Shown: piece by piece, positions 1 to 55,951 of the stretch | How positions within the stretch are numbered: position 1 is the first letter of the stretch | How the letters are laid out: every line of letters starts with the position of its first letter | From: Escherichia coli | GTDB taxonomy: Bacteria > Pseudomonadota > Gammaproteobacteria > Enterobacterales > Enterobacteriaceae | DNA: 64,000 nucleotides | Assembly: GCF_050920415.1 (NCBI RefSeq) | Contig: NZ_CP169309.1 | Reading direction: 5' to 3' (one strand) | Notes under the pieces: generated by a model | What the model was told of the DNA's origin: nothing | What the model saw: only the letters and a program-made list of their open reading frames with translations | Database searches by the model: none | Translations under genes and position numbers: made by a program

Positions 1-731
1 AAATCGCGGCGCATCTGTTGGTTTTTCTCCAGCGTGCTGGCGAGCTGGTTGAAGTCTTGCGCCAGTTTGCCCAATTCATCTTCGCTGGTGGGCGTCACGC
101 GAGTAGTGAAATCGCCCGCTGCCAGTTTGTGTGTACCGTCCACCAGTCGTTTGACCGGAGCCAGCAAACCGCGCGCCAGTGGGAATGTCGCCAGCGCCGC
201 TAACAAGGTAGATAAAGCGACAATCAGCCAACTGGTTTGCCTCTGTTGTCTGTCAAAATTGATGTCGGTATTGCGGGTCAGTCGTTCAACAGGGGAGGCG
301 ATCACCGCACCCACTTCCGCCCCATTGACCATAATGGGCCGCCGTGTGCCGTCTGGTGGAATCGGTGCTCGCGGGCCAACCAGCACTTTGTTGTTTTGAT
401 CAACCACCCAGAATTGCGTGCGCCAACCGTGTGGCGGCATACCGGGGCCGGGCTTATCTTCGTTGTTATCATGCTCCAGCGAACGTAGGATCTGAAATAC
501 AAAGCGATCGTTATTACGCAGGAAGCGCCAGTTCCCGTGCTGGGCGTACTGCTCACCAAGCGCATCGCCGAGCATTTGCAGCCGTTGTTCATTACCATGC
601 TTGATGTAATCGATAAAGCCGCGCTCAAAACTGATACGTACCGCCCAGTGCATCGTGATCAATAAGACAATGCAGGTGGCGAAAATCGCCAGAAACAGTT
701 TGCCGGTAATACCGGGTCGCCAGAACTTCAT
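1..731 (-). CDS. baeS: Envelope-stress sensor histidine kinase BaeS, N-terminal portion (gene continues beyond window start)
   Basis: Reverse complement of 661..731 translates [24 protein letters not shown]; ATG at complement(729..731) overlaps the mdtD stop (ATGA). Absent from ORF track because its stop lies outside the window. Confidence 0.85.
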
Positions 732-2143
732 TGCGCGCTCCTTTTTCGTCGCGAAATAGCGACATTTTGATGCGTATCGTTTGGCACTCTGGCAAAGACA
801 AACGCCGGAAGGGCGATGATAAACGCCATGCTAAGCCAGGTGTACATAAAGACGGTTTGTGTGGTGCTGCTGTCTACGCTGACATGCTGTGAACCAAAAA
901 GCCCCAGCAACAGCCCGGCGATGGTGACGCCGATACTCATCGATAATTGCATAATCATCGACAGCAGGCTGTTGCCGCTGCTCGCCAGATTGTCTGGTAG
1001 ATCTTTCAGCGTCAGGGTGTTCATGGAGGAGAAACGTGTCGAGTTGACCATTCCTTGTAAAAACAGGACGAACGGCAAAACGTAGTACCAGCCCAGCAGC
1101 GCGGTAGTCATAAACAGCAGGGTGACCAGCGACAGGCCCAGCGTGGTCGCCACCAGTACCCGACGATAACCAAAGCGATTCACCACCTGCACTACAATTC
1201 GCTTCATTCCCATGCTGCCGAGCACCATCGGGATCATCATCAATCCGGCATGAAACGGCGAGAAACCGAGGCCAATCTGTAAGAAAACCGGTGTCATAAA
1301 GGGCAACATGCCACTGCCGATACGTCCGGCAAAGCTCCCCGCCAGGCCCAGCGAAAAGGTACGAGTGCGGAACAGTTTCAGACTGAACAGGGCGCGGTTG
1401 TTGTTTCTGGCGTGCAGCAGATAAAGCACCAGTGCCACCACGCCAATCGCTGCCAGTCCGGCAATCGCCTGCGGTGAAAGTCCCGTGCCTTTACTGCCAT
1501 CCAGCGCCAGCGTTAATACCGCCATGCCGACCGCCAGCAACAAAAAACCGGAGAGATCGAAACGCCGCGTCTGCATGGTGTAGTTTGGCATTAACATCAG
1601 CGTGGCGATCGCACCGATAATCCCTACCGGAATGTTGATCAAAAAGATCCAGTGCCAGGACGCGTATTCCACCAGCAGGCCGCCGAGCGCCGGACCAAGC
1701 AGCGGACCGACTTGCCCGGGCAGCGTAACAAAGGTCATCGCCGCCATATATTGCTCGCGCGGTACAATTTTCATCACCGTCAACCTGCCAACCGGCACCA
1801 TCATCGCGCCGCCAACGCCCTGTAACGCGCGTGCCAGCAACAGTTCGTTTAGCGTGCCGGAAAGCGCGCAAAACAGTGAACCGAGAGTAAACAGTACGAT
1901 GGCGGTAAAGAAAATATTGCGCACGCCGACTTTGTCCGCCAGCCAGCCGCTGGCGGGCAGCATCACCGCCACGGTCAGTACATAAGAGACAATGACCATG
2001 TGCATATGCAACGGACTTTCCCCAAGGCTTTGCGCCATTGAGGGAAGGGCGGTGTTTACGATGGTGGTGTCCAGCGACTGCATAAAGAAGCCGAAAGCCA
2101 CAATCCACAATTGCCAGCGGGTGCTGTCGGGAAGATCTGTCAT
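728..2143 (-). CDS. mdtD: MFS-family putative multidrug transporter MdtD
   Basis: 471-aa ORF with many hydrophobic helices; last gene of the mdtABCD order, directly upstream of baeS. Confidence 0.9.
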
Positions 2144-5100
2144 TTACTCGGTTACCGTTTGTTTAGGTTTACGCGAAAAACGCAGCCGCAGACGGTCAAA
2201 AAAGAGATACACCACTGGCGTGGTATACAGCGTCAGAAGCTGGCTCATTACCAGACCTCCGACAATGGTGATCCCCAGGGGTTGGCGCAGCTCCGAGCCG
2301 TCACCGCCCGACAATACCAACGGCAGCGCACCAAACAGCGCCGCCAGGGTAGTCATCATAATCGGGCGAAAACGCAGCAGACAGGCCTGGAAAATAGCTT
2401 CCTGCGGCGTCAGGTTACCGTGCCGTTGGGCTTCGAGCGCAAAATCGACCATCATAATAGCGTTTTTCTTCACGATGCCGATTAATAGCATGATCCCTAT
2501 CAGGGCGATTAGGCTGAACGGGGCATTGAACAGCTCCAGCGCCAACAGCGCTCCAACGCCCGCCGAGGGCAGGGTGGAGAGAATCGTCAATGGATGTACG
2601 TAACTCTCGTAAAGGATACCCAGCACGATATACACCGTGGCGATGGCTGCGATAATCAGGATCACCTGCGAGTTCATCGTCTCCTGGAATACCTGCGCTG
2701 TTCCGGCAAAACTGCCGCGCACCGTCGAAGGCACACCTAGCTGGGTCATTGCGCGGTCAATCGCCGCACTGGCGTCCGAGAGCGATTTTCCGGTCGGCAA
2801 GTTGAACGAGATGGTCGAGGCCGCCGATAATCCCTGATGATTCACCGACAGCGGGGCATTCGCCGGTTGCCATTTAGCGAAATACGACAGCGGGATCGCT
2901 TTTCCTTCGTTATTAATGACGAACATTTTTTCCAGTGCACTGATGTCCTGGGTATAGCGTGGATCCACTTCCATCACCACTTTATACTGGTTCATGGGCT
3001 GGTAAATGGTCGAGATTTGCCGCTGCCCGAAGGCGTTATTCAACAGGCTGTTGGCGGCCTGCACGTCGATTCCCAGTCGTGCCATAGTGTCGCGGTCGTA
3101 AACCAGATTCATCTCCGCGCCGTTATCCTGCTGGTCGGAATTCACGTCCGCCAGTTCCGGTAACGTTGCCAGTTTTTTGCGGATTTTCGGCTCCCATTCG
3201 CGCAGCGCCGCCAGGTCGTCGGACAGCAACGTGTACTGATAACTGGCGTTCGACTGACGTCCGCCAACGCGAATATCTTGCACCGCCATCAGGAACAGAT
3301 TCGCTCCCGGTTCTTTCGCCAGCTTCACCCGTAGACGGTCGATAATTTGCTGCGCCGTTTCGCTGCGCTCGTCGCGTGGTTTGAGAGTGATAAACATCAT
3401 CCCACTGTTCACCCGCGAGCCACCGGTAAAGCCGGTGACATTATCCACTGCCGGATCGTCACGGATAATTTTCATGAAATCCTGCAACTTACCGCGCATC
3501 GCCTGAAACGAAATGCTCTGATCCGCCTGTATCCCGCCCATCAACACGCCGGTGTCCTGCTCCGGGAAGAAGGTTTTCGGGATCGAGATATACAGCCAGA
3601 TATTCAGCGCAATGGTGCCAAGCAGCACTACACCCACCAGACGGGTATGATTGAGCACCCATTTCAGCGACTTGCCGTAGCCTTGTTGCAGAGCAACCAA
3701 CATGCGACCAAAACCACGCAGACGCTTTTGCTCGCGCGGCTTGCTGGCTTTTAGCATCCAGCCGCACATCATCGGCGTTAACGTCAGGGAAACCAGCAAC
3801 GAAATACCAATGGCGACAGAAAGCGTCACGGCAAATTCGCGTAACAGTCGGCCCGGCAATCCGCCCATCAACAGCAGCGGCAGGAACACCGCCACCAGCG
3901 ACAGACTCATCGACAGCACCGTAAAGCCGACTTCGCGAGTACCTTGCAGCGCGGCTTGCAACGGTTTCATCCCCGCTTCCAGATGACGGGCAATGTTTTC
4001 CAGCACCACGATGGCATCATCCACCACAAAGCCAGTGGCGATGGTCAGCGCCATTAACGAAAGATTATTGAGACTGAAACCACACAGATACATCGCGGCA
4101 AACGTACCAATCAGCGAAACCGGCACCGCAACGGCGGGAATAGTAGTGGCGCGACCCGAGCGCAGGAATAAAAACACCACCAGAATCACCAGCGCCACCG
4201 AGATAATCAGCGTTTGCTCGACTTCCTCCAGTGAGGCGCGAATGGTGGGGGAGCGATCCTGGGCAATTTGCAGATCAATCGCCGCCGGAATGGTCTCCTG
4301 CAACTCCGGTAATTTTGCCCGGATGCTGTCAACCGTCTGGATAATATTGGCTTCCGGCAGCTTGCGGATCATCAGCAAAATAGCCGGTTTAGCGTTGGTC
4401 ATCCCGGCGTTGCGCACATCCTGCACCGAATCGGTCACCGTCGCCACATCGCCCAGACGAACCGCGCCGCCGTTGTTGTAATGAATAATCAGCGGTTGGT
4501 ATTCGGTAGCGGTTTTTAGCTCATCATTGGTCTGTATCTGCCAGCGGTGAGTGCCATCTTCCAGCGCCCCCTGCGGTTTACGCACGTTGGCATTGCTGAT
4601 GGCAGTGCGCACATCGTCCAGCGAGACGCCCTGATTAAACAGCGCCTGCGGGTTCAGCCCAACGCGCACGGCGGGCAACGAGCTGCCGCCGACATCGACA
4701 TCACCGACGCCGTCGATTTGCGAAATTGTCGGAGCCAGTTGCGTCGAGGCGAAATCGTACAGTTCACCTTGCGAATAAGTATCGGATGTCAGCGTGAGGA
4801 TCATAATTGGCGCATCCGAAGGATTCGCTTTGCGATAGGTCGGACGGCTTGGCATCCCACTGGGCAGCAAACTTTGCGCGGCGTTGATCGCCGCCTGCAC
4901 ATCGCGCGCCGCGCCGTTGATATCCCGGTCAAAATCAAACTGCAAAATAATACGCGTGCTGCCAAGCGAACTGCTGGAGGTCATTTCACTGACCCCGGCG
5001 ATGCGCCCAAGTGAGCGCTCCAGCGGCGTGGCGACGGAAGACGCCATTGTCTCCGGTGATGCACCGGGCAGCGAGGCGCTGACCATAATCACCGGAAAAT

Positions 5101-5221
5101 CGACCTGTGGCAGCGGGGCGACCGGCAGCATACGGAAACCCAGTATTCCGCACAGGGTAATGGCGACCGACAGTAAAATCGTCGCCACCGGGCGGTAAAT
5201 GAAGAGGGCAAAAAACTTCAC
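2144..5221 (-). CDS. mdtC: RND multidrug efflux pump subunit MdtC
   Basis: 1025-aa ORF with RND-type conserved segments (e.g. [30 protein letters not shown]); adjacent to mdtB. Confidence 0.95.
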
Positions 5222-8200
5222 TTACGCCTCCTCTTCATGACGGACAAAGCGACTTTTGGTCCACAATGCCAGGCGGTCGAACAGCAGATAAATCACCGGC
5301 GTGGTGAACAGCGTCAGCACCTGGCTAACAATCAGGCCGCCGACCATGCCGATGCCTAACGGACGACGTAGTTCCGCGCCGACTCCGGTGCTCAACATCA
5401 GCGGCAGCGCGCCAAGCAGTGCCGCCAGAGTGGTCATCAGGATCGGACGAAAACGCAGCAAACAGGCCTGGTAAATTGCATCGCGCGGCGACATGCCTTG
5501 CTCGCGCTCGGCAGCCAGCGCGAAGTCGATCATCATGATGGCGTTTTTCTTCACAATACCGATCAGCAAAATAATGCCGATGATGGCGATCACATCCAGC
5601 TCACTTCCGGCAATCATTAGCGCCAGCAGTGCGCCAACACCTGCCGTTGGCAACGTCGAGAGAATGGTGATCGGGTGGATAAAGCTCTCGTACAGAATGC
5701 CGAGCACGATATACATCGCCACCACCGCTGCGACAATCAGCCAGACAGTGCTGCCCAATGCCGACTGGAAGGCGAGGGTGCTGCCCTGGAATTGTGTGGT
5801 GATATCCACCGGCAGATTCAGTGTCTTTTCGGTATCCATAATTGCCTGCACCGCATCACCGAGAGAATAGTTATCCGGCACGTTAAAGGAGATGGTCGTT
5901 ACCGGGAACTGATCCAGATGGTTGATGGAGAGCGGCGCAAAACGCTGCTCAATTTTGGCAATTGAGCTTAACGGCACCACGCCACCGTCGCTGCTGGTCA
6001 GGCGAATGGTATCCAGCGCCGCAAGCCCTGGGGTATTTTCGGTATTGTGCTCCAGCACCACGCGATACTGGTTAGCCTGAGTATAAATAGTGGAAATCAG
6101 CCGCTGACCAAACGCGTTGTACAGGGCGTTATCGACGTCCGCCATGCTGATCCCCAGACGGCTGGCGCTGTCGCGATCAACATTGACATACGCCACCAGC
6201 CCTTTGTCCTGCCAATCGCTGGAGACATCAGAAAGCTGCGGCAGCTGCTGGAGTTTTTCCACGAGTTGCGGCACCCAGGTACTGAGCGCATCCAGCGATG
6301 TGGCCTGCAAGGTAAACTGGTACTGGGTGCGGCTGACCTGAGTATCGATAGTCAGATCCTGCGTTGGTTGCAGGAAGAGATCGACACCCGGCACTTTATC
6401 GACCGCCGATTGCAGACGGGAGATAACTTTTTGCACCCGGTCATCACGTTCATCCAACGGTTTGAGGTTGATCTGTAAACGCGCACTGTTCAGCGACGGG
6501 TTAGTGCCATCAACGCCAACAAACGAGGTCAGACTTTGCACTGCCGGATCCTGCAAAATCACATCCGCGACCTGGCGTTGCCGCTGGGCCATATTGGCAA
6601 AGGAGCTGGACTGCGGTGCCTGCAAAGTGCCCTGAATAATGCCGTTGTCCTGTACCGGGAAGAAACCTTTCGGAATGAACACCCACAATAGAACGCTCAG
6701 CAGCAGCGTGCTGAGCGCCACGCTTAAGGTCAGCCACGGATGATTCAGCACTTTCGCCAGTCCACGACCATAGGCGGCAATTATCCTGTCGAACATTTTT
6801 TCCGAGGCCCGGGAGAAGCGGTTCTGTTTACGCAGCGACTCCTGGCTGAGCATCCGCGCGCACATCATCGGTGTCAGGGTCAGCGACACCACGGCTGAGA
6901 TCAAAATCGCTACCGCCAGGGTAATGGCAAATTCGCGGAACAGTCGCCCGACGATATCGCCCATAAACAGCAGCGGGATCAGCACTGCAATCAGTGAGAA
7001 GGTCAGCGAGATTATGGTAAAGCCGATTTCACCCGCGCCCTTGAGCGCCGCCGCCAACGGTTTTTCGCCTTTTTCGATATAGCGGGAAATGTTTTCGATC
7101 ACCACGATGGCGTCATCGACCACGAATCCGGTGGCGATGGTTAACGCCATCAGCGTCAGGTTATTGATTGAAAAATCGAGAAACACCATAACCGCAAAGG
7201 TGCCAATTAACGACAGCGGCACCGCGACGCCAGGAATGATGGTCGCCGGAATATTGCGCAGAAACAGGTAGATAATCATGACTACCAGCGCGATAGCCAT
7301 CATCAGCTCAAACTGGGTATCGTCGACCGATGCGCGGATATTGGTAGTGCGATCGGAAAGTACCGTCACCTTCACCGATTTCGGCAGACTCTCGGTGAGC
7401 TGTGGCAGCATCTGCCGGATGCTGTCGGCGGTAGAGATAATGTTAGCACCGGGCTGGCGCTGAACATTCATCACAATGGCCTGTTCTTTGTTCGCCCATG
7501 CGCCAAGCCAACTGTTTTCTGCGCCTTGTTCAACGGTTGCGACATCACCAAGACGAATCGGCGCGCCGTTCTGGTAGGCGATAATCAACTGGCGATATTC
7601 ATCTGCAGATTGCATCTGGTCGTTCGCGGAAAGCGTGACCGCGCGGGAAGGGCCGTCGAGGCTACCTTTAGCCGAGTTAACGTTAGCGCCGGTAATGGCG
7701 GTGCGCACGGTTTCGCTGGTCAGGCCGAGGGCGGCAATCGCCTGGGCGTTAAGTTTGACGCGAACAGCCGGACGCTGACCGCCGGAAAGCGTCACCAGCC
7801 CGACGCCGGAAATCTGCGAGATCTTCTGCGCGACGCGGGTTTCCACCATGTCTTCCACTTGCGTCATCGGCATGGCGGTTGATGTGACGGCAAGCGTCAT
7901 GATCGGCGGATCTGCCGGGTTCACTTTGCTGTAAACCGGCGGGTTAGGCAGATCGCTCGGCAACAAGTTGGTCGCAGCGTTAATCGCGGCCTGCACTTCC
8001 TGCTCGGCGACATCCAGCGGTAATGTTAGCTGGAACTGCAAAGTGATAACTGACGCGCCGCCGGAACTTTGCGACGACATCTGTTTCAGGCCGGACATCT
8101 GCCCGAACTGGCGTTCGAGCGGTGCGGTAACGGCAGAGGTCATGACATCCGGGCTGGCACCTGGGTAGAGGGTGACCACCTGAATGGTTGGATAGTCCAC

Positions 8201-8344
8201 TTCCGGCAGCGCCGAAACGGGCAGGGCACGATAACCGATAATCCCGGCGAGTAAGATCGCCACCATCAGCAGCGTGGTGGCGACAGGACGCATAATAAAC
8301 AGGCGCGACGGGCCGCCTGTGCTGCTCGGGGGTAACACCTGCAT
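5222..8344 (-). CDS. mdtB: RND multidrug efflux pump subunit MdtB
   Basis: 1040-aa ORF paralogous to the mdtC product; stop/start overlap with mdtA. Confidence 0.95.
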
Positions 8345-9591
8345 CAGGAGCGTGCTCCTTTTTTCACGTATTCGCGGCTGGTGGCTTTCTCTTCCGAAGT
8401 GGTGGCGCTTTGAGCTTCAACCACTTCCACTTTCGCCCCTTCGGTCAGACGATCAATGCCATCCGTCACTACGCGGTCGCCTGCAGAAATACCTGCGCGG
8501 ATCACCACTTTCTGACTGTCCTGAATGCCCGGCGTCACCAGATGTTTGCTGACTTTGTTTTCGCTATTCAGCACCCAGACAAAATGGCCTTCGTTGCCCA
8601 TTTGCAGGGCGGCGGTGGGGATCACCACGGCGTTTTGTTCGGTGTCGACTAACATGCGAGCGTTAACAAACTGATTGGGAAACAGCGCATCATCCTGATT
8701 ATTAAAGCGTGCTTTCACTTTAATCGTACCGGTAGTGGCATCGATTTGGTTATCGAGACTTAACAGCGTGCCTTCACTTAATTTCTTCGAGTTGGTGCGA
8801 TCCCAGGCTTCAACAACCAGCGGTTTTCCGGCTTTTTGCGCCTGTACTACGGTAGTGATATCGCTTTCCGGCAGGGTAAAGAGCAAATCGATAGGATGCG
8901 TCTGGGTGATCACCACAATCCCGGTGGTATCACCACTGGAGATTTGGTTACCAACATCAACCTGCTTGAGACCAACGCGACCATCGACTGGTGCGGTGAT
9001 GCGGCTCCAGTCGAGTTGCAGCTGCGCACTGGCGACGCTCGCTTCATCAGCCTTAATGGTACCTTCGGTTTCACTGACCAGCGCCTGTTGGGCATCCAAT
9101 TCCTGACGGGAGACGAGATTGGTTTTTGCCAGTTGCTGATAACGCGCTAAATCACGGCGGGCGTTGGCTAGCGTGGCTTTATCTTTTGCCAGTTGCCCCT
9201 GAGCTTGTGCTAATGCAACTTTGAACTGGCTGGGGTCAATTTCTGCCAGTAAATCGCCTGCTTTGACCTGCTGACCCTCCTGGAAATGTAATGCCATCAG
9301 TTGACCATCTACGCGACTGCGCACCGTAACGGTGTTAGCAGCGGTAATCGTACCAAGCCCGGTGAGGTAACGCGGAACCGCCTGTTCCACGGCAGTTGCT
9401 GCCTGAACCGGGGCCAATGGGCCGGAACGCATACCACGGCGGCCACCGGCTGGCGACTGCTGTGCTTGCTTCGTCGCACCTGGCGCTGCGCTCTGGGATT
9501 CATTGCGGCCTTGCCAGAACCAGAAAGCGGCGATGGCGGCGATAACCACCACGATTACGATTACCCAACGGGATTTATAACTGCCTTTCAT
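8344..9591 (-). CDS. mdtA: Membrane fusion (periplasmic adaptor) protein MdtA
   Basis: ORF track gives a 464-aa frame; the likely start is the internal ATG at complement(9589..9591), giving [26 protein letters not shown]... (415 aa) with an N-terminal anchor helix. Confidence 0.88.
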
Positions 9592-9975: not shown

Positions 9976-10142
9976 GCCTTCACAATCAGATTGTCAATCC
10001 GCAGGCTTTGTAGTCTGCGATCCTGCCAGCAAATATTCTTTGCGAGACGTTACGCAATAATCACAGATGAAACTATTTTATCTACGCGTTAGCGATAGAC
10101 TGCATTCAGGGCAAAAGGAGGTAGGCCGCCGATTTCAGCGGG

Positions 10143-10303
10143 ACGCTGAAACGGGAAAGCCCCTCCCGAGGAAGGGGCCTTAAATAAGGAAAGGGTCATG
10201 ATGAAGATACTCATCATCGTGGTGCTCTTAGTCATTAGCTTACCGGCTTACTAAGACTACCAGGGCGGGGGAAACCCCGCTCTACCCTCACTCCTGAAAG
10301 TAT
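10143..10303 (-). ncRNA. Sib-family antisense sRNA, copy 2; boundaries approximate
   Basis: By position relative to Ibs copy 2, same repeat unit. Confidence 0.4.
10198..10254 (+). CDS. Ibs-family type I toxin, copy 2 (18 aa: MMKILIIVVLLVISLPAY)
   Basis: Same architecture as copy 1, 328 bp downstream. Confidence 0.6.
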   Translation: MMKILIIVVLLVISLPAY

Positions 10304-10470
10304 GCCTTCACAATCAGATTGTCAATCCGCAGGCTTTGTAGTCTGCGATCCTGCCAGCAAATATTCTTTGCGAGACGTTACGCAATAATCACATGTGAAA
10401 CTATTTTATCTGCAAGTTAGCGATAGACTGCTTGCATGGCGAAAGGAGGTAGGCCGCCGATTTCAGCGGG

Positions 10471-10631
10471 ACGCTGAAACGGGAAAGCCCCTCCCGAGGA
10501 AGGGGCCTTAAATAAGGAAAGGGTCATGATGAAGCTACTCATCATCGTGGTGCTCTTAGTTATTAGCTGGCCAGCTTACTAAGACTACCAGGGCGGGGGA
10601 AACCCCGCTCTACCCTCACTCCTGAAGTTAT
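10471..10631 (-). ncRNA. Sib-family antisense sRNA, copy 3; boundaries approximate
   Basis: By position relative to Ibs copy 3; the 5' flank of this unit is divergent so the sRNA may be altered. Confidence 0.3.
10526..10582 (+). CDS. Ibs-family type I toxin, copy 3 (18 aa: MMKLLIIVVLLVISWPAY)
   Basis: Same architecture; the distal part of this repeat unit diverges after the ORF. Confidence 0.55.
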   Translation: MMKLLIIVVLLVISWPAY

Positions 10632-10799
10632 GTTACTCCACCCTTATTGTCAATCTGTAAGTCCACGTTCTTGCGGGGCGAATAGCAAAACCCTCTGCGC
10701 TTATGGGCCGAATTCTGAAAGTTGCTTTGCCTGCTCTTATTTCATTATTGCAGTCGGTATGATACCGGACCTCAATAATTCTCTAAGAAAGGATTTCTT

Positions 10800-11459
10800 A
10801 TGAGCGAACAAATCACGTTTGCCACCAGCGATTTTGCCAGTAACCCGGAACCACGTTGCCCCTGCATTTTGCTGTTGGATGTTTCTGGTTCGATGAGTGG
10901 TAGACCTATTAATGAACTTAACGCCGGATTGGTTACCTTTCGCGATGAGCTGCTTGCCGATTCGCTGGCCTTAAAAAGAGTGGAACTCGGTATTGTGACG
11001 TTCGGCCCGGTGCATGTGGAACAACCATTTACCAGCGCCGCTAATTTTTTCCCGCCCATCCTGTTTGCCCAGGGCGATACACCAATGGGGGCCGCCATTA
11101 CCAAAGCCCTGAATATGGTTGAGGAGCGCAAACGTGAGTATCGCGCCAATGGTATTTCCTATTATCGTCCGTGGATTTTCCTGATTACCGATGGCGCACC
11201 AACCGATGAGTGGCAGGCTGCTGCCAACAAGGTGTTTCAGGGGGAAGAAGATAAGAAGTTTGCCTTCTTTTCCATCGGTGTTCAGGGGGCGGATATGAAG
11301 ACGCTGGCCCAAATCAGCGTTCGTCAGCCTTTGCCTCTTCAAGGATTACAATTCCGCGAACTGTTTAGCTGGTTATCCAGTTCGCTGCGTTCGGTTTCCC
11401 GCTCCACGCCGGGAATGGAAGTTGTACTGGAAGCGCCAAAAGGCTGGACGTCAGTGTGA
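10800..11459 (+). CDS. yegL: von Willebrand factor A (vWA) domain protein YegL
   Basis: 219 aa; MIDAS-like motif DVSGSMSG near the N-terminus and ITDGAPTD later. Confidence 0.85.
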
Positions 11460-12217
11460 GCTGGCGTCTGGTTTATGCATCAGCCGTTGGAACGTCGCAC
11501 ATCAGCGCTGACTTGTCTTGCCAGGATGCCTGCCAGATGCAGGTTGTCTGGCTAAATGACCAGCAGCCATTATTGACGGTATTTGTCGCTGATGGCGCAG
11601 GCAGCGTTTCGCAGGGTGGCGAAGGTGCGACGCTTGCCGTCAATGAAGCGATGGCTTATATGATGCAAAAAGTGCAGGGCGGGGAATTGGGGCTTAATGA
11701 TGTCCTCGCAACGGATATTGTGCTGACCGTTCGTCAGCGACTTTTTGCCGAGGCGGAAGCTAAAGAATTAGCAGTTCGTGATTTTGCCTGCACGTTTCTG
11801 GGACTGATTTCATCGCCTAACGGCACATTGATTATGCAGATTGGCGATGGCGGCGTGGTGGTAGATTTGGGTCACGATCTGCAATTGCCGCTCACGCCGA
11901 TGGTGGGTGAATATGCCAACATGACGCATTTCATTACCGATGAAGATGCCGTTTCCAGACTTGAAACTTTCACCAGCACTGAGCGTGCGCATAGAGTTGC
12001 AGCATTTACGGATGGTATTCAGAGACTGGCGTTAAATATGCTGGATAATTCTCCGCATGTGCCTTTCTTTACCCCGTTTTTCAATGGACTGGCGTCAGCA
12101 ACGCAGGAACAACTCGATTTATTACCTGAATTGTTAAAGCAGTTTTTGTCCAGCCCAGCGGTAAACGAGCGTACCGATGATGATAAAACGTTAGCACTGG
12201 CTATGTGGACAGAATGA
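11456..12217 (+). CDS. yegK: PP2C-family Ser/Thr protein phosphatase YegK (PphC)
   Basis: 253 aa; GTG start at 11456 overlaps the yegL stop (GTGA); metal-binding-like motifs FVADGAGS and IGDGGVVV. Confidence 0.8.
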
Positions 12218-14902: not shown

Positions 14903-16255
14903 TTAACGAAACACCACTTCTGCCCAACGTGCCAGCCCGGCGGTAACCGACCCAAAGTCATCGCCGCCTGCAATCGGAATGCCCGGCAACTGTTCTGCCA
15001 GCGCTTTTTTAATCAGCGGCGATCGGGCGCTACCACCAGTCAGATAGATGACATCCGGTTTTTCCTGGGCGTTATCCAGCGCCAGTTGCACCTGTTCCAG
15101 AATTCGCGCCAGCGGCTGACTGAGGGCGTTTTCCAGCCCTTGTTGGCTAATCAGTGTTGCCAGCTCATCGCTGATAAACGGCAGCGATGCGCGGGTTTCC
15201 GCTGCGCTGGAAAGGGCGATTTTGCTCTCTTCCGCGCTGCGTACCAGCCGATAACTTAAACGCTGACGCCAGACTTTCTGTAACAGGGCCACTTTCTCCG
15301 GTTCGCGGGCGTCGCGTACCAGATCGTTAAGCAGACGACCGTTAGCACTACTGTAGAAATCACTCTGCGCAGGTACATCGTTGATGGCAACTGCATTCCA
15401 CCACGGCAGGATCGGCAGGGCGATGCCTTTTTCAGTTTCGCCACCCATGCCCAGTAATGGCATCAGATTTTTAAACGCCAGTGCGATATCCAGATCGTTA
15501 CCGCCAATACGGCAACCACTGTGACCCAGCAGGCTGGCTTCACGATCGAGGCGCGAACGCCACTGTGGCCCCATTAGCAGTAAAGAACAGTCAGTCGTAC
15601 CACCGCCGATATCCACCACCAGTACGCGTTTTTCTTCCTGCAAGGTGGCTTCGTAATCCAGCCCAGCCGCCACCGGCTCGTACTGGAATACCACGTCCTT
15701 AAACCCGGCACGCTTCGCTGCACGCTCCAGAATCCCTTGTGCCTGGGCGTTTGCCTCATCGCCGCCCAGCCCCTGGAAGTTGATCGGGCGACCAATCACC
15801 GCCTGGGTAATCGCTTCTGGCAGCTGTGTCTGGGCCTGCTTGCGAATGTGCAACATCATTGCGCAGACCAGATCCTCAAACAGCGCCACCTGCTGCGGTT
15901 TTAAGCCGCTGGCACCGAGGAACGATTTTGGTGATTTAACAAACCACACTTCTTCCGGATCATCAATGTACTGCGCCAGTGAGGAAAGGCCGAACTGCAC
16001 GCTTTTCGCCGTGACATCGATATCTTCTTCGCGGTTATAACGAATCGCCCGACGTAATAGCGCCTGCGTTTCATTGTCGTCTGCCGGAACATCATGATGG
16101 CGGTACAGCCATTCGCTTACCGCTTCACGCGTTGGCGCGCAAAGCATTGAAGGCAGCAGCGTGCTGTCGTTTTCCATTTTCAGTAATTGCGGTTTACCGT
16201 CACGCATGACCGCCACTGAACAGTTTGCTGTACCGTAATCAAAACCAATAAACAC
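14903..16255 (-). CDS. yegD: Hsp70/actin-fold ATPase-like protein YegD
   Basis: ORF track frame is 471 aa; probable GTG start at complement(16253..16255) gives ~450 aa beginning (V/M)FIGFDYGTANCSVAV; motifs DYGTAN and DIGGGTTD. Confidence 0.8.
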   Translation of the reverse strand: MFIGFDYGTANCSVAVMRDGKPQLLKMENDSTLLPSMLCAPTREAVSEWLYRHHDVPADDNETQALLRRAIRYNREEDIDVTAKSVQFGLSSLAQYIDDPEEVWFVKSPKSFLGASGLKPQQVALFEDLVCAMMLHIRKQAQTQLPEAITQAVIGRPINFQGLGGDEANAQAQGILERAAKRAGFKDVVFQYEPVAAGLDYEATLQEEKRVLVVDIGGGTTDCSLLLMGPQWRSRLDREASLLGHSGCRIGGNDLDIALAFKNLMPLLGMGGETEKGIALPILPWWNAVAINDVPAQSDFYSSANGRLLNDLVRDAREPEKVALLQKVWRQRLSYRLVRSAEESKIALSSAAETRASLPFISDELATLISQQGLENALSQPLARILEQVQLALDNAQEKPDVIYLTGGSARSPLIKKALAEQLPGIPIAGGDDFGSVTAGLARWAEVVFR

Positions 16256-17237: not shown

Positions 17238-17244
17238 CGTTGGT

Positions 17245-31645: not shown

Positions 31646-32134
31646 ATGCTGGAAGATCTGCGCGCCAACAGCTGGAGTTTACGCCCGTGCTGCATGGTTC
31701 TTGCCTATCGCGTTGCTCATTTTTGTTCAGTGTGGCGCAAAAAAAACGTCCTCAACAATCTGTGGGCGGCCCCGCTGCTGGTGCTGTATCGCATTATCAC
31801 CGAATGCTTTTTCGGTTATGAAATCCAGGCCGCCGCGACCATTGGCCGACGCTTTACTATCCATCACGGCTATGCCGTAGTGATCAATAAAAACGTGGTC
31901 GCGGGGGATGATTTCACCATTCGCCACGGCGTCACTATCGGCAATCGTGGTGCCGATAACATGGCATGTCCACACATTGGCAACGGCGTCGAACTTGGTG
32001 CCAACGTCATTATCCTTGGCGATATCACGATTGGTAACAACGTCACCGTGGGGGCGGGCAGCGTGGTGCTCGACGCAATCCCGGACAACGCGCTGGTGGT
32101 GGGAGAAAAAGCGCGAGTGAAGGTAATTAAATGA
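31646..32134 (+). CDS. wcaB: Colanic acid acetyltransferase WcaB (hexapeptide repeat)
   Basis: 162 aa; hexapeptide repeats (IGNRGADN..., IGNNVTVGAGSVV). Confidence 0.88.
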   Translation: MLEDLRANSWSLRPCCMVLAYRVAHFCSVWRKKNVLNNLWAAPLLVLYRIITECFFGYEIQAAATIGRRFTIHHGYAVVINKNVVAGDDFTIRHGVTIGNRGADNMACPHIGNGVELGANVIILGDITIGNNVTVGAGSVVLDAIPDNALVVGEKARVKVIK

Positions 32135-37130: not shown

Positions 37131-38096
37131 ATGAGTAAACAACGTATTTTTATCGCTGGCCATCGCGGGATGGTCGGTTCTGCCATCAAGCGACAGCTCG
37201 AACAGCGCGGTGATGTGGAACTGGTATTACGCACCCGCGACGAACTGAACCTGCTGGACAGCCGCGCGGTGCATGATTTCTTTGCCAGCGAGCGCATTGA
37301 CCAGGTCTATCTGGCGGCGGCGAAAGTGGGCGGGATTGTCGCCAACAACACGTATCCGGCGGATTTCATCTACCAGAATATGATGATTGAGAGCAACATC
37401 ATTCACGCTGCGCATCAGAACGACGTGAACAAACTGCTGTTTCTCGGATCGTCCTGCATCTACCCAAAACTGGCAAAACAGCCGATGGCAGAAGGCGAGC
37501 TGTTACAGGGCACGCTGGAGCCGACCAACGAGCCATACGCCATTGCCAAAATCGCCGGGATCAAACTGTGCGAATCTTACAACCGCCAGTATGGACGCGA
37601 TTACCGCTCTGTCATGCCGACCAACCTGTACGGGCTGCACGACAACTTCCATCCGAATAATTCGCATGTGATCCCCGCATTGCTGCGCCGCTTCCACGAG
37701 GCGACGGCACAGAATGCACCGGACGTGGTGGTATGGGGCAGCGGTACGCCGATGCGCGAATTTCTGCATGTCGATGATATGGCGGCGGCAAGCATTCATG
37801 TCATGGAGCTGGCGCACGAAGTCTGGCTGGAGAACACCCAGCCGATGCTGTCGCACATTAACGTCGGCACGGGTGTTGACTGCACTATCCGCGAGCTGGC
37901 GCAAACCATCGCCAAAGTGGTGGGTTACAAAGGCCGGGTGGTTTTTGATGCCAGTAAACCGGATGGCACACCGCGCAAACTGCTGGATGTGACGCGCCTG
38001 CATCAGCTTGGCTGGTATCACGAAATCTCACTGGAAGCGGGGCTTGCCAGCACTTACCAGTGGTTCCTTGAGAATCAAGACCGCTTTCGGGGGTAA
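37131..38096 (+). CDS. fcl: GDP-L-fucose synthase (GDP-4-keto-6-deoxymannose 3,5-epimerase/4-reductase)
   Basis: 321 aa; [14 protein letters not shown]... Confidence 0.93.
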
Positions 38097-38578
38097 TGAT
38101 GTTTTTACGTCAGGAAGACTTTGCCACGGTAGTGCGCTCCACTCCGCTTGTCTCTCTCGACTTTATTGTCGAGAACAGCCGCGGCGAGTTTCTGCTTGGC
38201 AAAAGAACCAACCGCCCGGCACAGGGTTACTGGTTTGTGCCGGGAGGGCGCGTGCAGAAGGACGAAACGCTGGAAGCCGCATTTGAGCGGTTGACGATGG
38301 CGGAACTGGGGCTGCGTCTGCCGATAACAGCAGGCCAGTTTTACGGTGTCTGGCAGCACTTTTATGACGATAACTTCTCCGGCACGGATTTCACCACGCA
38401 CTATGTGGTGCTCGGTTTTCGCTTCAGAGTAGCGGAAGAAGAACTGTTACTGCCGGATGAGCAGCATGACGATTACCGCTGGCTGACGCCGGACGCACTG
38501 CTCGCCAGTGACAATGTTCACCCTAACAGCCGCGCCTATTTTCTCGCTGAGAAGCGTGCCGGAGTACCCGGATTATGA
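38096..38578 (+). CDS. gmm: GDP-mannose mannosyl hydrolase (Nudix)
   Basis: 160 aa; position between fcl and wcaI. Confidence 0.88.
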
Positions 38579-45710: not shown

Positions 45711-46991
45711 ATGAAATTACTGATTCTGGGCAACCACACTTGCGGCAATCGCGGCGACAGCGCCATCTTGCGCGGCCTACTTGATGCCATCAACATCCTC
45801 AACCCTCACGCCGAAGTGGACGTAATGAGCCGCTATCCGGTCAGTTCTTCCTGGCTGCTCAACCGCCCGGTAATGGGTGATCCGCTGTTCCTGCAAATGA
45901 AACAACACAACAGCGCGGCGGGCGTTGTCGGGCGCGTAAAAAAAGTCCTCCGTCGCCGCTACCAGCACCAGGTATTGCTCTCACGCGTCACCGACACCGG
46001 CAAGTTGCGTAATATCGCCATTGCCCAGGGATTCACTGACTTTGTGCGCCTGCTGTCAGGTTACGACGCCATTATTCAGGTCGGCGGATCGTTTTTTGTC
46101 GATCTCTACGGCGTGCCGCAGTTTGAACACGCGCTTTGCACGTTTATGGCGAAAAAGCCGCTGTTTATGATTGGTCACAGCGTCGGCCCGTTCCAGGATG
46201 AGCAATTTAACCAACTGGCAAACTACGTATTCGGGCACTGCGACGCGCTGATCCTGCGCGAATCGGTCAGCCTGGATCTAATGAAACGCAGCAATATCAC
46301 TACCGCAAAAGTTGAACATGGCGTCGATACCGCGTGGCTGGTCGATCACCACACCGAAGACTTCACCGCCAGCTATGCTGTTCAACACTGGCTGGATGTA
46401 GCCGCACAGCAGAAAACGGTGGCCATTACCCTGCGCGAACTGGCACCGTTCGACAAACGTCTCGGCACCACTCAACAAGCGTATGAAAAAGCCTTTGCCG
46501 GGGTGGTCAATCGCATTCTCGACGAAGGCTATCAGGTCATTGCGCTCTCCACCTGTACGGGCATCGACAGTTATAACAAAGACGACCGCATGGTGGCGCT
46601 CAACCTGCGTCAGCACATCAGCGATCCTGCCCGTTATCACGTGGTGATGGATGAGCTCAACGATCTGGAAATGGGCAAAATCCTCGGTGCCTGTGAACTC
46701 ACCGTCGGTACGCGCCTGCACTCTGCCATTATCTCGATGAATTTCTCCACTCCGGCAATTGCCATCAACTACGAACACAAATCCGCCGGGATTATGCAGC
46801 AGCTTGGGCTACCTGAGATGGCGATTGATATCCGTCATTTATTAGACGGCAGCCTGCAAGCGATGGTTGCGGATACCTTAGGCCAGCTTCCGGAGCTGAA
46901 TACACGACTTAACGAAGCCGTCAGTCGCGAACGCCAGGCAGGAATGCAGATGGTGCAATCTGTGCTCGAGCGCATCGGGGAGGCGAAATGA
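45711..46991 (+). CDS. wcaK: Colanic acid pyruvyl transferase WcaK
   Basis: ORF track frame starts at 45639; the likely start is ATG at 45711 (MKLLILGNHTCGNRGD...), 426 aa. Confidence 0.88.
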   Translation: MKLLILGNHTCGNRGDSAILRGLLDAINILNPHAEVDVMSRYPVSSSWLLNRPVMGDPLFLQMKQHNSAAGVVGRVKKVLRRRYQHQVLLSRVTDTGKLRNIAIAQGFTDFVRLLSGYDAIIQVGGSFFVDLYGVPQFEHALCTFMAKKPLFMIGHSVGPFQDEQFNQLANYVFGHCDALILRESVSLDLMKRSNITTAKVEHGVDTAWLVDHHTEDFTASYAVQHWLDVAAQQKTVAITLRELAPFDKRLGTTQQAYEKAFAGVVNRILDEGYQVIALSTCTGIDSYNKDDRMVALNLRQHISDPARYHVVMDELNDLEMGKILGACELTVGTRLHSAIISMNFSTPAIAINYEHKSAGIMQQLGLPEMAIDIRHLLDGSLQAMVADTLGQLPELNTRLNEAVSRERQAGMQMVQSVLERIGEAK

Positions 46992-51052: not shown

Positions 51053-52138
51053 GTGAAGATACTTGTTACTGGTGGCGCAGGATTTATTGGTTCTGCTGTT
51101 GTTCGTCACATAATAAATAATACGCAAGATAGTGTTGTTAATGTCGATAAATTAACCTACGCCGGAAATCTGGAATCGCTCGCTGAAATTTCTGATTCTG
51201 AACGTTATTCATTTGAGCATGCAGATATCTGTGATGCCGCAGCGATGGCTCGTATTTTTTCACAACACCAGCCAGATGCGGTAATGCACCTGGCGGCTGA
51301 GAGCCACGTTGACCGCTCAATAACTGGTCCGGCGGCATTCATTGAAACTAATATTGTAGGTACTTACGTACTTTTAGAAGCAGCGCGCAATTATTGGTCT
51401 GGTCTGGATGATGAAAAGAAAAAAAACTTTCGCTTTCATCATATTTCTACTGATGAAGTGTATGGTGACTTACCCCATCCGGATGAAGTAAATAGCAATG
51501 AAACATTGCCGTTATTTACGGAAACGACAGCATACGCGCCAAGTAGTCCATATTCTGCTTCTAAAGCGTCAAGCGATCATTTGGTTCGCGCATGGAAACG
51601 TACTTATGGTTTACCGACAATCGTGACTAATTGCTCGAACAACTATGGCCCTTATCATTTCCCGGAAAAGCTTATTCCACTGGTTATTCTTAATGCACTG
51701 GAAGGTAAGGCATTACCTATTTATGGCAAAGGAGATCAAATTCGCGACTGGTTGTATGTAGAGGATCATGCTCGTGCGCTATATACCGTAGTTACTGAAG
51801 GTAAAGCGGGTGAAACCTATAACATTGGCGGACACAACGAAAAGAAAAACATCGATGTTGTGCTGACTATTTGTGATTTGTTGGATGAGATAGTCCCGAA
51901 AGAGAAATCTTATCGTGAGCAAATTACTTATGTTGCTGATCGCCCAGGACACGATCGCCGTTATGCGATTGATGCTGAGAAGATTAGTCGCGAATTGGGT
52001 TGGAAACCACAGGAAACGTTTGAGAGCGGGATTCGGAAGACAGTAGAATGGTACCTGTCCAATACAAAATGGGTTGATAATGTGAAAAGTGGCGCCTATC
52101 AATCGTGGATTGAACAAAACTATGAGGGACGCCAGTAA
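51053..52138 (+). CDS. rmlB: dTDP-glucose 4,6-dehydratase
   Basis: 361 aa; [35 protein letters not shown]. Confidence 0.93.
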
Positions 52139-53037
52139 TGAATATCCTCCTATTCGGCAAAACAGGGCAGGTAGGTTGGGAACTACAGCGTGCTCTGGCA
52201 CCTCTGGGTAATTTGATTGCTCTTGATGTTCACTCCACTGATTATTGTGGTGATTTTAGTAATCCTGAAGGTGTAGCTGAAACCGTAAGAAGCATTCGGC
52301 CTGATATTATTGTCAACGCAGCCGCTCACACCGCAGTTGACAAAGCAGAATCAGAACCGGAGTTTGCACAATTACTTAACGCGACAAGTGTCGAAGCGAT
52401 TGCGAAAGCAGCCAATGAAGTCGGCTCCTGGGTTATTCACTACTCTACTGACTACGTATTTCCGGGAACCGGTGAAATACCATGGCAGGAGGCGGATGCA
52501 ACCGCACCGCTAAATGTTTACGGTGAAACCAAGTTAGCCGGAGAAAAAGCATTACAAGAGCATTGTGTGAAGCACCTTATTTTCCGGACCAGCTGGGTCT
52601 ATGCAGGTAAAGGAAATAACTTCGCCAAAACGATGTTACGTCTGGCAAAAGAGCGTGAAGAATTGGCCGTTATTAACGATCAGTTTGGTGCGCCAACAGG
52701 TGCTGAGCTGCTGGCTGATTGTACAGCACATGCCATTCGTGTCGCACTGAATAAACCAGAAGTCGCAGGCTTGTACCATTTGGTAGCCAGTGGTACCACA
52801 ACCTGGCACGATTATGCTGCGCTGGTTTTTGAAGAGGCGCGCAAAGCAGGCATTCCCCTCGCACTCAACAAACTCAATGCGGTACCAACAACAGCCTATC
52901 CTACACCAGCTCGTCGTCCACATAACTCTCGCCTTAATACAGAAAAATTTCAGCAGAACTTTGCGCTTGTCTTGCCTGACTGGCAGGTTGGCGTGAAACG
53001 CATGCTCAACGAATTATTTACGACTACAGCAATTTAA
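52138..53037 (+). CDS. rmlD: dTDP-4-dehydrorhamnose reductase
   Basis: 299 aa; [20 protein letters not shown]. Confidence 0.92.
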   Translation: MNILLFGKTGQVGWELQRALAPLGNLIALDVHSTDYCGDFSNPEGVAETVRSIRPDIIVNAAAHTAVDKAESEPEFAQLLNATSVEAIAKAANEVGSWVIHYSTDYVFPGTGEIPWQEADATAPLNVYGETKLAGEKALQEHCVKHLIFRTSWVYAGKGNNFAKTMLRLAKEREELAVINDQFGAPTGAELLADCTAHAIRVALNKPEVAGLYHLVASGTTTWHDYAALVFEEARKAGIPLALNKLNAVPTTAYPTPARRPHNSRLNTEKFQQNFALVLPDWQVGVKRMLNELFTTTAI

Positions 53038-53984: not shown

Positions 53985-54398
53985 ATGATGGATATTAAAT
54001 TAATCTCTTTGCAAAAACATGGGGATGAGCGTGGTGCATTAATTGCTCTTGAAGAGCAACGAAATATACCTTTCGAAGTCAAAAGAATATATTACATACT
54101 CGAGACTCTTAAGGGAGTAAGACGCGGATTTCATGCGCACAAGGTTACTCGTCAGTTAGCTATTGTAGTCAAGGGAGCTTGTAAATTTCATCTGGATAAT
54201 GGTAAAGAAACAAAGCAGGTGGAACTTAATGATCCAACAATTGCGTTGCTGATAGAACCCTATATATGGCATGAAATGTATGATTTTAGTGATGATTGTG
54301 TGCTGCTTGTAATTGCGGATGATTTCTATAAAGAGTCTGATTATATACGCAATTATGATGATTTTATTAGAAGAGTAAATTCAATTGAGAATTCATAA
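53985..54398 (+). CDS. fdtA: dTDP-4-keto-6-deoxyglucose 3,4-isomerase (FdtA/QdtA-type, WxcM-like cupin)
   Basis: 137 aa; [13 protein letters not shown]...[11 protein letters not shown]...RGFHAHK is typical of FdtA-type isomerases. FdtA versus QdtA cannot be separated by eye. Confidence 0.7.
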
Positions 54399-54852: not shown

Positions 54853-55951
54853 AATTGATTTTTTAGATCTTTTTGCAATTAACCAGCGACAGCACAAAGA
54901 ATTAGTCTCTGCGTTTAGTAGGGTGCTAGATTCTGGTTGGTATATCATGGGCGAAGAACTTGAGCAGTTCGAGAAAGAGTTCGCAGAATACTGTGGAGTT
55001 AAGTATTGCATTGGTGTAGCAAATGGCCTTGATGCGTTGATACTAGTATTGAGGGCATGGAAAGAACTCGGCTATCTAGAAGACGGTGACGAGGTATTAG
55101 TACCGGCAAATACATATATTGCTTCTATTCTTGCTATAACAGAGAACAAACTTGTTCCTGTTCTTGTTGAACCAGATATAGAAACTTATAATATTAATCC
55201 TGCTTTAATTGAAAATTACATTACGGAAAAAACTAAAGCAATATTACCGGTTCACTTATATGGTCTATTGTGCAATATGCCAGAAATTAGTGCAATCGCA
55301 AGAAAATATAATCTGTTGATTCTTGAAGATTGTGCACAAGCACATGGTGCAATACGTGATGGTCGCAAAGCTGGAGCTTGGGGGGATGCTGCAGGATTTA
55401 GTTTTTATCCAGGAAAAAACCTTGGAGCTTTGGGGGATGCGGGAGCTGTTACTACAAATAATGCAGAATTATCCTCAACTATAAAAGCTTTGCGAAATTA
55501 TGGGTCACATAAGAAATATGAAAATATTTATCAGGGATTGAATAGTCGATTGGATGAACTGCAAGCAGCCTTATTGCGTGTAAAAATCCATACATTACCG
55601 GAAGATACTGCGATTCGGCAAAGGATTGCTGAAAAATATATTCGTGAAATAAAAAACCCTGCGATTACGTTACCAGTGTACGAAGGCCAAGGTGCGCACG
55701 TTTGGCATTTATTTGTAGTAAGAATCGCTAATCGTGAAAAATTCCAGTCATACTTATCAGAGAAGGGTATCCAAACCTTAATTCACTATCCATTACCACC
55801 CCATAAGCAGCAAGCATATCAAAATATGTCTAGTCTTAGCCTTCCAATTACTGAGCAAATTCATGATGAAGTCATTTCTTTACCTATAAGTCCGGTAATG
55901 AGTGAAGATGATGTCAATTATGTAATCAAAGTGGTCAATGATTACAAGTAA
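54845..55951 (+). CDS. fdtB: dTDP-3-keto-6-deoxyhexose 3-aminotransferase (DegT/DnrJ/EryC1 family, FdtB-like)
   Basis: 368 aa; PLP-aminotransferase family features; gene context. Confidence 0.7.

Follow-up and report, generated by a model that had tools for sequence, protein, structure and literature searches.

The genes yegL and pphC (yegK) of Escherichia coli share four nucleotides, the GTG start codon of the phosphatase gene pphC being laid over the TGA stop codon of yegL. From the sequence features of this junction, their conservation and the positions of the starts, we infer that the two genes are translationally coupled, most likely by termination-reinitiation. The junction lies within a 64,000-nucleotide stretch of E. 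coli strain MFDS1022581 (the window), which is 100% identical to NZ_CP169399.1 positions 1889144-1953143. Starts and overlaps of this kind are already known from the RefSeq/PGAP and curated K-12 annotation and are a textbook operon feature; mildly new are the deep conservation of the NTGA overlap within a vWA-PP2C-kinase cassette, the preference for GUG in that cassette and a predicted E. coli hairpin that loops out the overlap itself.

According to the PGAP annotation, the window carries baeS-mdtDCBA (minus strand), three copies of the Ibs/Sib toxin-antitoxin, yegL-pphC (+), yegJ (-), yegI (+) and yegD (-), the further genes alkA, dgcE, udk, dcd, asmA and yegH, the colanic-acid cluster from wza to wcaM, then galF, and an O2/O50 O-antigen cluster (rfbBDA, fdtA, fdtC, fdtB, wzx, a GT4 glycosyltransferase gene, rfbC, wzy, GT2 and DUF1972). 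JUMPstart elements lie upstream of wza and rfbB, and an Rfam scan of the whole window returned nothing beyond known elements. Coordinates of the junctions, starts and predicted structure discussed below are collected in Table 1.

Table 1 Junctions, start codons and predicted hairpin in the window.
Feature	Position	Strand	Details and source
yegL CDS, vWA-domain protein, 219 aa	10800..11459	+	PGAP; stop TGA 11457-11459; Pfam VWA E=5e-10; same in K-12
pphC (yegK) CDS, PP2C-like Ser/Thr phosphatase, 253 aa, GTG start	11456..12217	+	PGAP, K-12
yegL/pphC GTGA stop/start overlap	11456..11459	+	pphC GTG 11456-58 and yegL TGA 11457-59; sequence
Predicted 15-bp RNA hairpin	11441..11474	+	arms 11441-55/11460-74; tetraloop is the GUGA overlap
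mdtD/baeS ATGA, 4-nt overlap	728..731	-	same in K-12
wcaB/wcaC ATGA, 4-nt overlap	32131..32134	+	junction table
gmm/wcaI ATGA, 4-nt overlap	38575..38578	+	junction table
wcaK/wcaL ATGA, 4-nt overlap	46988..46991	+	junction table
mdtA/mdtB TGATG, 1-nt overlap at 8344	8342..8346	-	same in K-12
rfbB/rfbD TAATG, 1-nt overlap at 52138	52136..52140	+	same in K-12
fdtB (aminotransferase)/wzx TAATG, 1-nt overlap at 55951	55949..55953	+	PGAP, junction table
fcl/gmm TAATGATG	38094..38101	+	annotated gmm start 38099, 2-nt gap
mdtB/mdtC TAAGTG, zero gap, mdtC GTG start	5219..5224	-	junction table
mdtC/mdtD TAAATG, zero gap	2141..2146	-	junction table
+2 nt junctions: wzb/wzc, wcaA/wcaB, gmd/fcl, wcaI/cpsB			
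wcaJ/wzxC, +1			
fdtC/fdtB and wzy/GT2, -8			
fdtA/fdtC, -14			
wcaC/wcaD, -26			
yegD GTG start	16253..16255 (start 16255)	-	PGAP, K-12
mdtC GTG start	5221	-	K-12 comparison
rfbB GTG start	51053..51055	+	K-12 rfbB likewise GTG
fdtC TTG start	54385..54387	+	intact 155-aa ORF 54385-54852
GT4 glycosyltransferase TTG start	57229..57231	+	PGAP; SD; A32; homologues

The yegL/pphC junction and the start of PphC

The yegL frame ends with TCA GTG TGA and pphC begins with GTG AGC TGG CGT, the 4-nt overlap placing the G of the pphC start codon at the wobble position of the last Val codon of YegL. An earlier note on this DNA had recorded the GTGA overlap and its GTG start at 11456-11459, and the sequence, PGAP (NZ_CP169399.1) and the curated K-12 record, which annotate the overlap identically, agree on it. 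Upstream, the pphC frame is closed by a stop at 11366-68, and no other ATG, GTG or TTG lies between this stop and the PP2C_2 domain (Pfam match to PphC residues 11-220, E=1.2e-50), which leaves GTG 11456 as the only canonical pphC start. Residues 2-4 of PphC (x-W-R) are conserved across phyla, and comparative evidence supports an N-terminus at GTG 11456. The enzyme has been characterised with a construct in which the annotated 762-bp ORF carried an N-terminal His tag, native expression not being robustly detected (bioRxiv 10.1101/303594), and PphC abundance is given as 0.004 ppm (PMC9841429). The TetRP start-site supplement (PMC4909307) contains no entries for yegD, yegK, yegL, mdtC, wcaH or baeS.

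With pphC lying in the -1 frame, a YegL-PphC fusion made by -1 frameshifting was considered and rejected. Inspection of the 3' end of yegL (CTG GAA GCG CCA AAA GGC TGG ACG TCA GTG TGA) found no canonical X XXY YYZ heptamer in the last 30 nt of the gene, and such a fusion is also opposed by the pphC-frame stop 30 codons upstream.

Conservation in the vWA-PP2C-kinase cassette

A single scan of species-representative genomes with PphC as the query yielded 79 loci, from Escherichia, Klebsiella, many Burkholderiales, Pseudomonas, Frankia, Planctomycetes, Myxococcota, Chloroflexota, Bacteroidota, Paenibacillus and others. Nearly all of them have a YegL homologue directly upstream of PphC and a YegI homologue directly downstream, most in the order vWA, PP2C, kinase; these loci represent an old cassette for a vWA protein, PP2C phosphatase and Ser/Thr kinase that has spread horizontally, with yegL and pphC as its first two genes. 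Both here and in K-12, yegJ lies in opposite orientation between pphC and the kinase gene; in the ancestral layout of the cassette, a tight junction also joins the kinase gene to pphC.

Junction types were counted in the 76 loci whose gene ends are intact (Proteobacteria, Actinobacteria, Planctomycetes, Bacteroidetes, Firmicutes and others). An NTGA overlap is present in 53 of these (39 GTGA, 8 ATGA and 6 TTGA); the genes overlap by 1 nt in 5 more, and the remaining 18 show other short spacings. The GTGA, ATGA and TTGA variants correspond to the synonymous last Val codons GTG, GTA and GTT of YegL, and the NTGA joint is kept down to ~35% PphC identity. A silent change from GTG to GTA in the last YegL codon would give pphC an AUG start.

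The wobble base of this terminal Val codon was compared with that of all other Val codons in these genes. Across the 59 loci in which YegL ends in Val, the counts were G42/A9/T7/C1, against an expectation of 20.9/9.1/13.9/15.1. The only base that destroys the start codon, C, is depleted 15-fold (1 against 15.1 expected; binomial P = 5.7e-7), and G is enriched while A is not (chi-square P = 5e-4); both tests ignore kinship among loci, and because the 76 loci are phylogenetically related these P values overstate the significance and are indicative only. With this relatedness in mind, the yegL/pphC overlap appears to have been kept beyond neutral drift. The TGG-CG (Trp-Arg) immediately after the TGA is also conserved, and the PphC frame alone accounts for this. 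Within the species, 5413 of 5426 complete E. coli genomes carry the 54-nt junction, at 94-100% identity.

Initiation signals and a predicted hairpin at pphC

Upstream of pphC, a single SD-like element is present, AAGG (11440-43), with a predicted aSD duplex of -5.6 kcal/mol, and pphC is listed by Kohl et al. with a gtGTG start, the SD AAGG, a DtoStart of 17 and 'predicted ambiguity: yes' (PMC9841429). The 5' arm of the predicted hairpin consists of the last 15 nt of yegL preceding the overlap, and its base takes in AGG 11441-43 of the weak SD. Folding of the segment 11436-11479 gave an MFE of -21 kcal/mol and z = -4.49, with none of 200 shuffles equally stable. This was the most extreme value among the 11 tight junctions folded, the next strongest being mdtB/mdtC (z = -2.9) and gmm/wcaI (z = -2.2), and the other eight were unremarkable. 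At mdtB/mdtC, a strong SD (GAGGAGG, aSD duplex -12 kcal/mol) is predicted to pair with the downstream CCCUCUUC, leaving the GUG in the loop (-14.4 kcal/mol, z = -2.88).

An NUGA tetraloop closed by at least 4 pairs was found at only 3 of 54 junctions with a -4 overlap. The GUGA-loop hairpin is also present in E. coli E69, and an altered near-version occurs in cryptic Escherichia and in Klebsiella spallanzanii; it is absent from distant homologues, and no compensatory changes or covariation were seen. The hairpin is not conserved beyond Escherichia and Klebsiella, and a claim of structural conservation is not warranted. Since both arms are protein-coding, the stability of the hairpin could be partly a by-product. 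It is safest to regard the predicted structure as specific to this lineage and of uncertain significance.

Mode of initiation at pphC

Under termination-reinitiation, a ribosome finishing yegL would terminate on the UGA at 11457-59, and the same ribosome would restart one base upstream, on the GUG at 11456-58. Independent initiation of pphC is expected to be poor because of its GUG start, the weak and distant AAGG as the sole SD-like element and the hairpin that buries it; in E. coli the 15-bp stem would hide this element and would be opened only by a ribosome translating the end of yegL. Among native E. coli pairs with a -4 overlap, 4 of 5 were found to be coupled and one, bioBF, was initiated de novo (PMC6728339); coupling collapses at a gap of ~20 nt, and the role of the SD in coupled pairs ranges from essential to none (PMC6728339, PMC10666635). 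As -4 and -1 overlaps are coupled in most of the native E. coli pairs tested, coupling is a reasonable expectation for the window pairs, and for yegL/pphC we consider termination-reinitiation probable.

The alternative that survives best is de novo initiation, with each downstream gene, pphC included, using a ribosome-binding site of its own and the overlaps being compact packing without effect on expression. Several genes in the window suit this description, as properly spaced and good SDs precede baeS (AAGGAG, -7.9 kcal/mol), mdtC (GAGGAGG, -12.0 kcal/mol), wcaL (GGGAGG, -11.0 kcal/mol) and gmm (-9.9 kcal/mol), all four of which may therefore initiate independently, and bioBF provides a precedent for a native -4 pair (PMC6728339). 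For pphC itself, Kohl et al. predict SD-directed, ambiguous initiation at the GUGUG (PMC9841429), but this gene combines a GUG start with a long-spaced AAGG and has its SD-like element within the predicted -21 kcal/mol stem. Packing also does not demand that the start sit at the stop, whereas the NTGA overlap and the avoidance of wobble C across phyla indicate that it must, and the tested E. coli -4 pairs were coupled in four cases out of five. Taken over all the junctions, this explanation is unlikely.

A considerably less probable route is offered by the hexamer GTGTGA at 11454-11459, the 5' GUG of which (11454-56) is in the yegL frame. In a start-stop mode as described for narQ, ribosomes would initiate de novo on this 5' GUG, meet the UGA and reinitiate on the 3' GUG, independently of yegL translation. 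RF2-dependent reinitiation at GUGUGA has been demonstrated for narQ, and pphC is among the gtGTG starts with predicted ambiguity (PMC9841429). At pphC, however, the 5' GUG encodes a Val within the translated yegL, so that elongating ribosomes already reach the UGA; the AAGG that would have to direct initiation is weak and predicted to be base-paired, and distant homologues have GTATGA or GTTTGA, which lack a 5' start codon.

That the overlaps are neutral mutational accidents, produced for example by stop-codon loss with 3' extension or by AT-rich start and stop composition with nothing selected, is highly improbable: -4 and -1 are the only options for a stop and a start to share bases, so sequence constraints by themselves should produce some excess, and the junction type does drift among homologues (other spacings in 18 of 76 cassettes), but NTGA persists in 53 of 76 cassettes to ~35% PphC identity, the start-destroying wobble base is depleted 15-fold, and all junctions shared by this strain and K-12 are identical.

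Tight junctions across the window

Tight stop/start junctions are the commonest gene-pair layout in bacteria, and the yegL/pphC overlap is therefore ordinary as such. In the window, 19 of 45 co-directional pairs lie within -8 to +6 nt of each other, significantly more than expected from the genome-wide frequency in E. coli (binomial P = 0.0045), an excess explained by the operon-rich nature of the stretch, in which three long operons dominate. The genome-wide figure is 707 of 2,987 pairs, and the commonest co-directional distance in E. coli is -4, followed by -1 and -8 (PMC10666635). The other junctions listed in the earlier note, and several that it lacks, are likewise ordinary features of operons (mdtABCD-baeS, colanic-acid and O-antigen), at distances of -4, -1, 0 or +2 nt, and each junction common to the window and K-12 is identical in both. 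The overlapping pairs presumably share one transcript, there being no space for a terminator or promoter between them.

Six of these junctions had been described in the earlier note as 4-nt overlaps, a description that holds for two of them, yegL/pphC and mdtD/baeS (Table 1). The other four were mis-described: mdtA/mdtB is a TGATG, and rfbB/rfbD (rmlB/rmlD) and fdtB/wzx are TAATG junctions, each with a 1-nt overlap, although the last two do contain the letters ATGA, with the TGA out of the frame of the upstream gene. The fourth, fcl/gmm (TAATGATG), has a 2-nt gap as annotated, the gmm start being placed by PGAP and K-12 (NP_416555.2) at 38099, the second of two ATGs. A start at the first (38096) would instead give a 1-nt overlap, and this is the one used in the constructs of PDB entries 1RYA, 2GT2 and 2GT4, in which the chains begin MMFLRQ; gmm is the only genuinely ambiguous N-terminus among the starts examined. 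The same list left out the ATGA overlaps of wcaB/wcaC, gmm/wcaI and wcaK/wcaL and the zero-gap junctions of mdtB/mdtC and mdtC/mdtD.

Non-ATG starts

Six genes of the window have annotated non-ATG starts, namely pphC, yegD, mdtC and rfbB (GTG) and the GT4 glycosyltransferase gene and fdtC (TTG); those of mdtC, rfbB and fdtC were absent from the earlier note, which named the other three. The GTG start proposed for yegD is borne out by several comparisons. The Pfam HSP70 profile aligns from its position 2 with YegD residue 3, orthologues in Citrobacter, Salmonella and Enterobacter are nearly all 450 aa long, and when the DNA is aligned, E. coli, Salmonella and Citrobacter have GTG at the start and Enterobacter has ATG. 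Just upstream, 1-nt indels interrupt any extended frame, and an SD of the form GGGG(A/G) has been retained near -8. An extended yegD ORF beginning at TTG 16318 was rejected, as it has no SD and the indels break the upstream frame in Citrobacter and Enterobacter.

For the GT4 glycosyltransferase, two TTG codons had been offered as the start, 57223 or 57229, and only the second is upheld. The frame opens at the wzx stop (57211-13), and these two TTGs are the only ones preceding the conserved N-terminus. The SD AGAGG at 57218-22 stands 6 nt from 57229 and 0 nt from 57223, and the N-terminal MKI(I/V)IPV of homologues in Enterobacter, Pectobacterium, Shewanella and others lines up with a start at 57229. 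TTG 57223-25 was rejected because it abuts the SD and because strain A32 carries a 1-nt insertion between the two TTGs that puts the upstream one out of frame. The fdtC ORF, which overlaps fdtA by 14 nt and fdtB by 8 nt, is treated by PGAP as two pseudogene fragments.

Comparison with curated orthologues had been suggested as a check, and the curated K-12 record showed agreement in annotated starts and shared junctions. The impact on annotation is small, as the comparative checks support the starts already given for pphC (GTG), yegD (GTG) and GT4 (TTG 57229).

Relation to known systems

[quoted passage not shown] 2019, 2023), which are likewise co-directional and overlap by ATGA/GTGA or TGATG/TAATG. 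Overlaps of the TeRe form (NTGA or TGATG/TAATG) were found at yegL/pphC, mdtD/baeS, wcaB/wcaC, gmm/wcaI and wcaK/wcaL and, with a distance of -1, at mdtA/mdtB, rfbB/rfbD and fdtB/wzx. Features shared with TeRe pairs include an SD-like motif inside the upstream gene and local RNA structure, which has been proposed to suppress de novo initiation, and the TeRe layout is enriched in operons encoding interacting proteins. Compared with the known TeRe pairs, pphC is distinguished by combining a GUG start with an SD at poor spacing and a predicted 15-bp hairpin that loops out the overlap itself.

In classical structure-dependent coupling (trpB-trpA, atpHA; PMC6728339), the downstream ribosome-binding site is masked because it pairs with coding sequence of the upstream gene, and a ribosome translating that gene exposes it. 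Similar masking is predicted for yegL/pphC and mdtB/mdtC, as a thermodynamic prediction only and from hairpins that show no covariation.

The likeness to narQ (Kohl et al. 2022) lies in the hexamer: pphC has the same GUGUGA, its 3' GUG being the annotated start and the UGA closing the frame of the 5' GUG, and the gene is entered in Table 3 of PMC9841429. Unlike in narQ, a translated upstream gene has this 5' GUG as its final sense codon, and the UGA would be fed by elongating ribosomes rather than by mis-initiation alone. RF2-dependent reinitiation at a dual GUG has been shown only for narQ and synthetic constructs (PMC9841429).

At the level of gene content, the yeg cassette has the same domains in the same order (vWA, PP2C, kinase) as the TerY-P triad (Anantharaman et al. 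2012), of which a defence version has been described (Gao et al. 2020). In both, the genes are tightly linked, occur patchily but widely among phyla, and encode a phosphatase that has the kinase as a substrate; YegI has been reported to be a kinase (10.1101/303594, 10.1101/819920). The adjacent YegL and PphC match Pfam VWA and PP2C_2. PADLOC, however, assigned no family to YegL or PphC and gave only weak kinase-type matches for YegI (PD-T4-6, MkoA). The TerY-P kinase also has a C-terminal zinc ribbon (an OB fold in the defence version); at the C-terminus of YegI Pfam picked up neither, the only match being a weak one to HHH_5 at residues 517-552 (E = 0.00097, 20 bits, under the 27-bit cut-off). 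The cassette thus resembles TerY-P in domain content and order, membership not being established.

Implications for the cassette and for operon expression

Overlapping stops and starts in the window had also been taken to suggest stoichiometric co-expression within modules, which goes too far, since pairs differ in how efficiently they are coupled. PphC has the very low reported abundance given above, and the complex of MdtB and MdtC is B2C1, not 1:1 (PMC7015380); the mdtB/mdtC pair, with its GUG start and predicted masked SD at mdtC, cautions against equating coupling with 1:1 stoichiometry.

The yegL/pphC junction is a clean natural candidate for termination-reinitiation coupling, with a GUG start, a poor SD, a strong predicted hairpin and a deeply conserved overlap, and it is part of a vWA-PP2C-kinase cassette that has been transferred widely. 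We tentatively raise the possibility, which we hold to be somewhat doubtful, that the conserved NTGA overlap, with its preference for the weak GUG, keeps synthesis of the phosphatase strictly dependent on and sub-stoichiometric to that of the vWA protein, with the hairpin acting as a lock, specific to Escherichia, against independent initiation. The overlap would then be an expression-ratio device of a signalling or defence-like module rather than mere packing.

Distribution and divergence of the vWA–PP2C–kinase cassette

None of the loci inspected in Salmonella, Citrobacter and Enterobacter (L085–L087) carries the yegL–pphC–yegJ–yegI block; the gene immediately after yegD there encodes an Ibs toxin (Salmonella and Citrobacter) or is mdtA (Enterobacter). 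The nearest PphC homologues outside Escherichia are encoded by Klebsiella spallanzanii and by Burkholderiales such as Piscinibacter, with 62–65% identity. This distribution suggests that Escherichia gained the cassette as an island by horizontal transfer. The 8.5-kb stretch at 9000–17500 has a best match of 90–95% identity in 5388 of the 5437 E. coli records, which is far below the usual core-genome identity. Divergent yegL–pphC–yegI alleles were described by Rajagopalan and Dworkin, with PphC approximately 92% identical between K-12 and REL606 (bioRxiv 10.1101/303594), and the low identity of this stretch is consistent with such alleles; PphC of the window shares 83% identity with that of E. 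coli strain E69.

The yegJ gene, with a GC content of 40.5% compared with ~51% in neighbouring genes, sets pphC and yegI apart in the window, as it does in K-12. Most other genomes, E. coli E69, cryptic Escherichia and Klebsiella among them (loci including L004–L006, L008 and L028), have yegI directly 3′ of pphC, the two genes either overlapping at ATGA or GTGA or lying no more than ~9 nt apart. The difference in yegJ layout between K-12 and B strains was already known (bioRxiv 10.1101/303594). No Shine–Dalgarno sequence (SD) was detected for yegI in the yegJ-containing layout (anti-SD duplex +0.4 kcal/mol). Upstream of yegL, the window carries three Sib/Ibs copies after mdtA, whereas K-12 carries two (sibA/ibsA and sibB/ibsB).

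Table. Features of the window outside the yegL/pphC junction
Feature	Position	Strand	Remarks
mdtB/mdtC junction, TAAGTG and predicted hairpin	5200–5243	-	
Sib antitoxin RNA/Ibs toxin (type I toxin–antitoxin)	9855–9997, 10183–10325, 10511–10653		three tandem copies between mdtA and yegL
yegL–pphC–yegJ–yegI block	10800–14890		
yegJ (DUF2314)	12282–12743	-	
yegD 5′ leader	16256–16300	-	upstream of yegD
JUMPstart (ops) element	26656–26694		upstream of wza
algC RNA motif	41285–41334		upstream of cpsG
JUMPstart (ops) element	50940–50978		upstream of rfbB
fdtC (hexapeptide-repeat acetyltransferase, dTDP-Fuc3NAc pathway)	54385–54852		intact 155-aa ORF, TTG start
ISAs1-family transposase gene	62245–63381		internal stop; annotated pseudogene
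Sulfatase-like/LTA-synthase-family gene	63454–64000		next after ISAs1-family gene, distal end of O2/O50 cluster

Surface polysaccharide clusters

The PGAP annotation presents fdtC as two pseudogene fragments, both in the window and in the comparison strain A32, which is probably an annotation artefact arising from comparison against longer family members. The ISAs1-family transposase gene is intact in strain A32. The JUMPstart (ops) elements and the algC RNA motif are known cis-regulatory elements.

Candidate regulatory structures at yegD and mdtC

The leader of the Hsp70-family gene yegD, TAAAGTCACGCCCCTTCTTCACCGGCATGGGGA, is near-invariant across E. coli, Salmonella, Citrobacter and Enterobacter, and may represent a regulatory element or part of a promoter. 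It contains a potential CCCC/GGGG stem of only four pairs that might sequester the SD by pairing, for which no covariation was seen in an alignment of these four groups. At the mdtB/mdtC junction, the strong SD of mdtC (GAGGAGG) is predicted to pair with CCCUCUUC, located just inside mdtC (−14.4 kcal/mol; fold stability against shuffles, z = −2.9), with the GUG start held in the loop of the predicted hairpin. MdtB and MdtC form a B2C1 complex (PMC7015380), and we speculate that a weak, structure-gated mdtC start may help to set the 2:1 MdtB:MdtC ratio.
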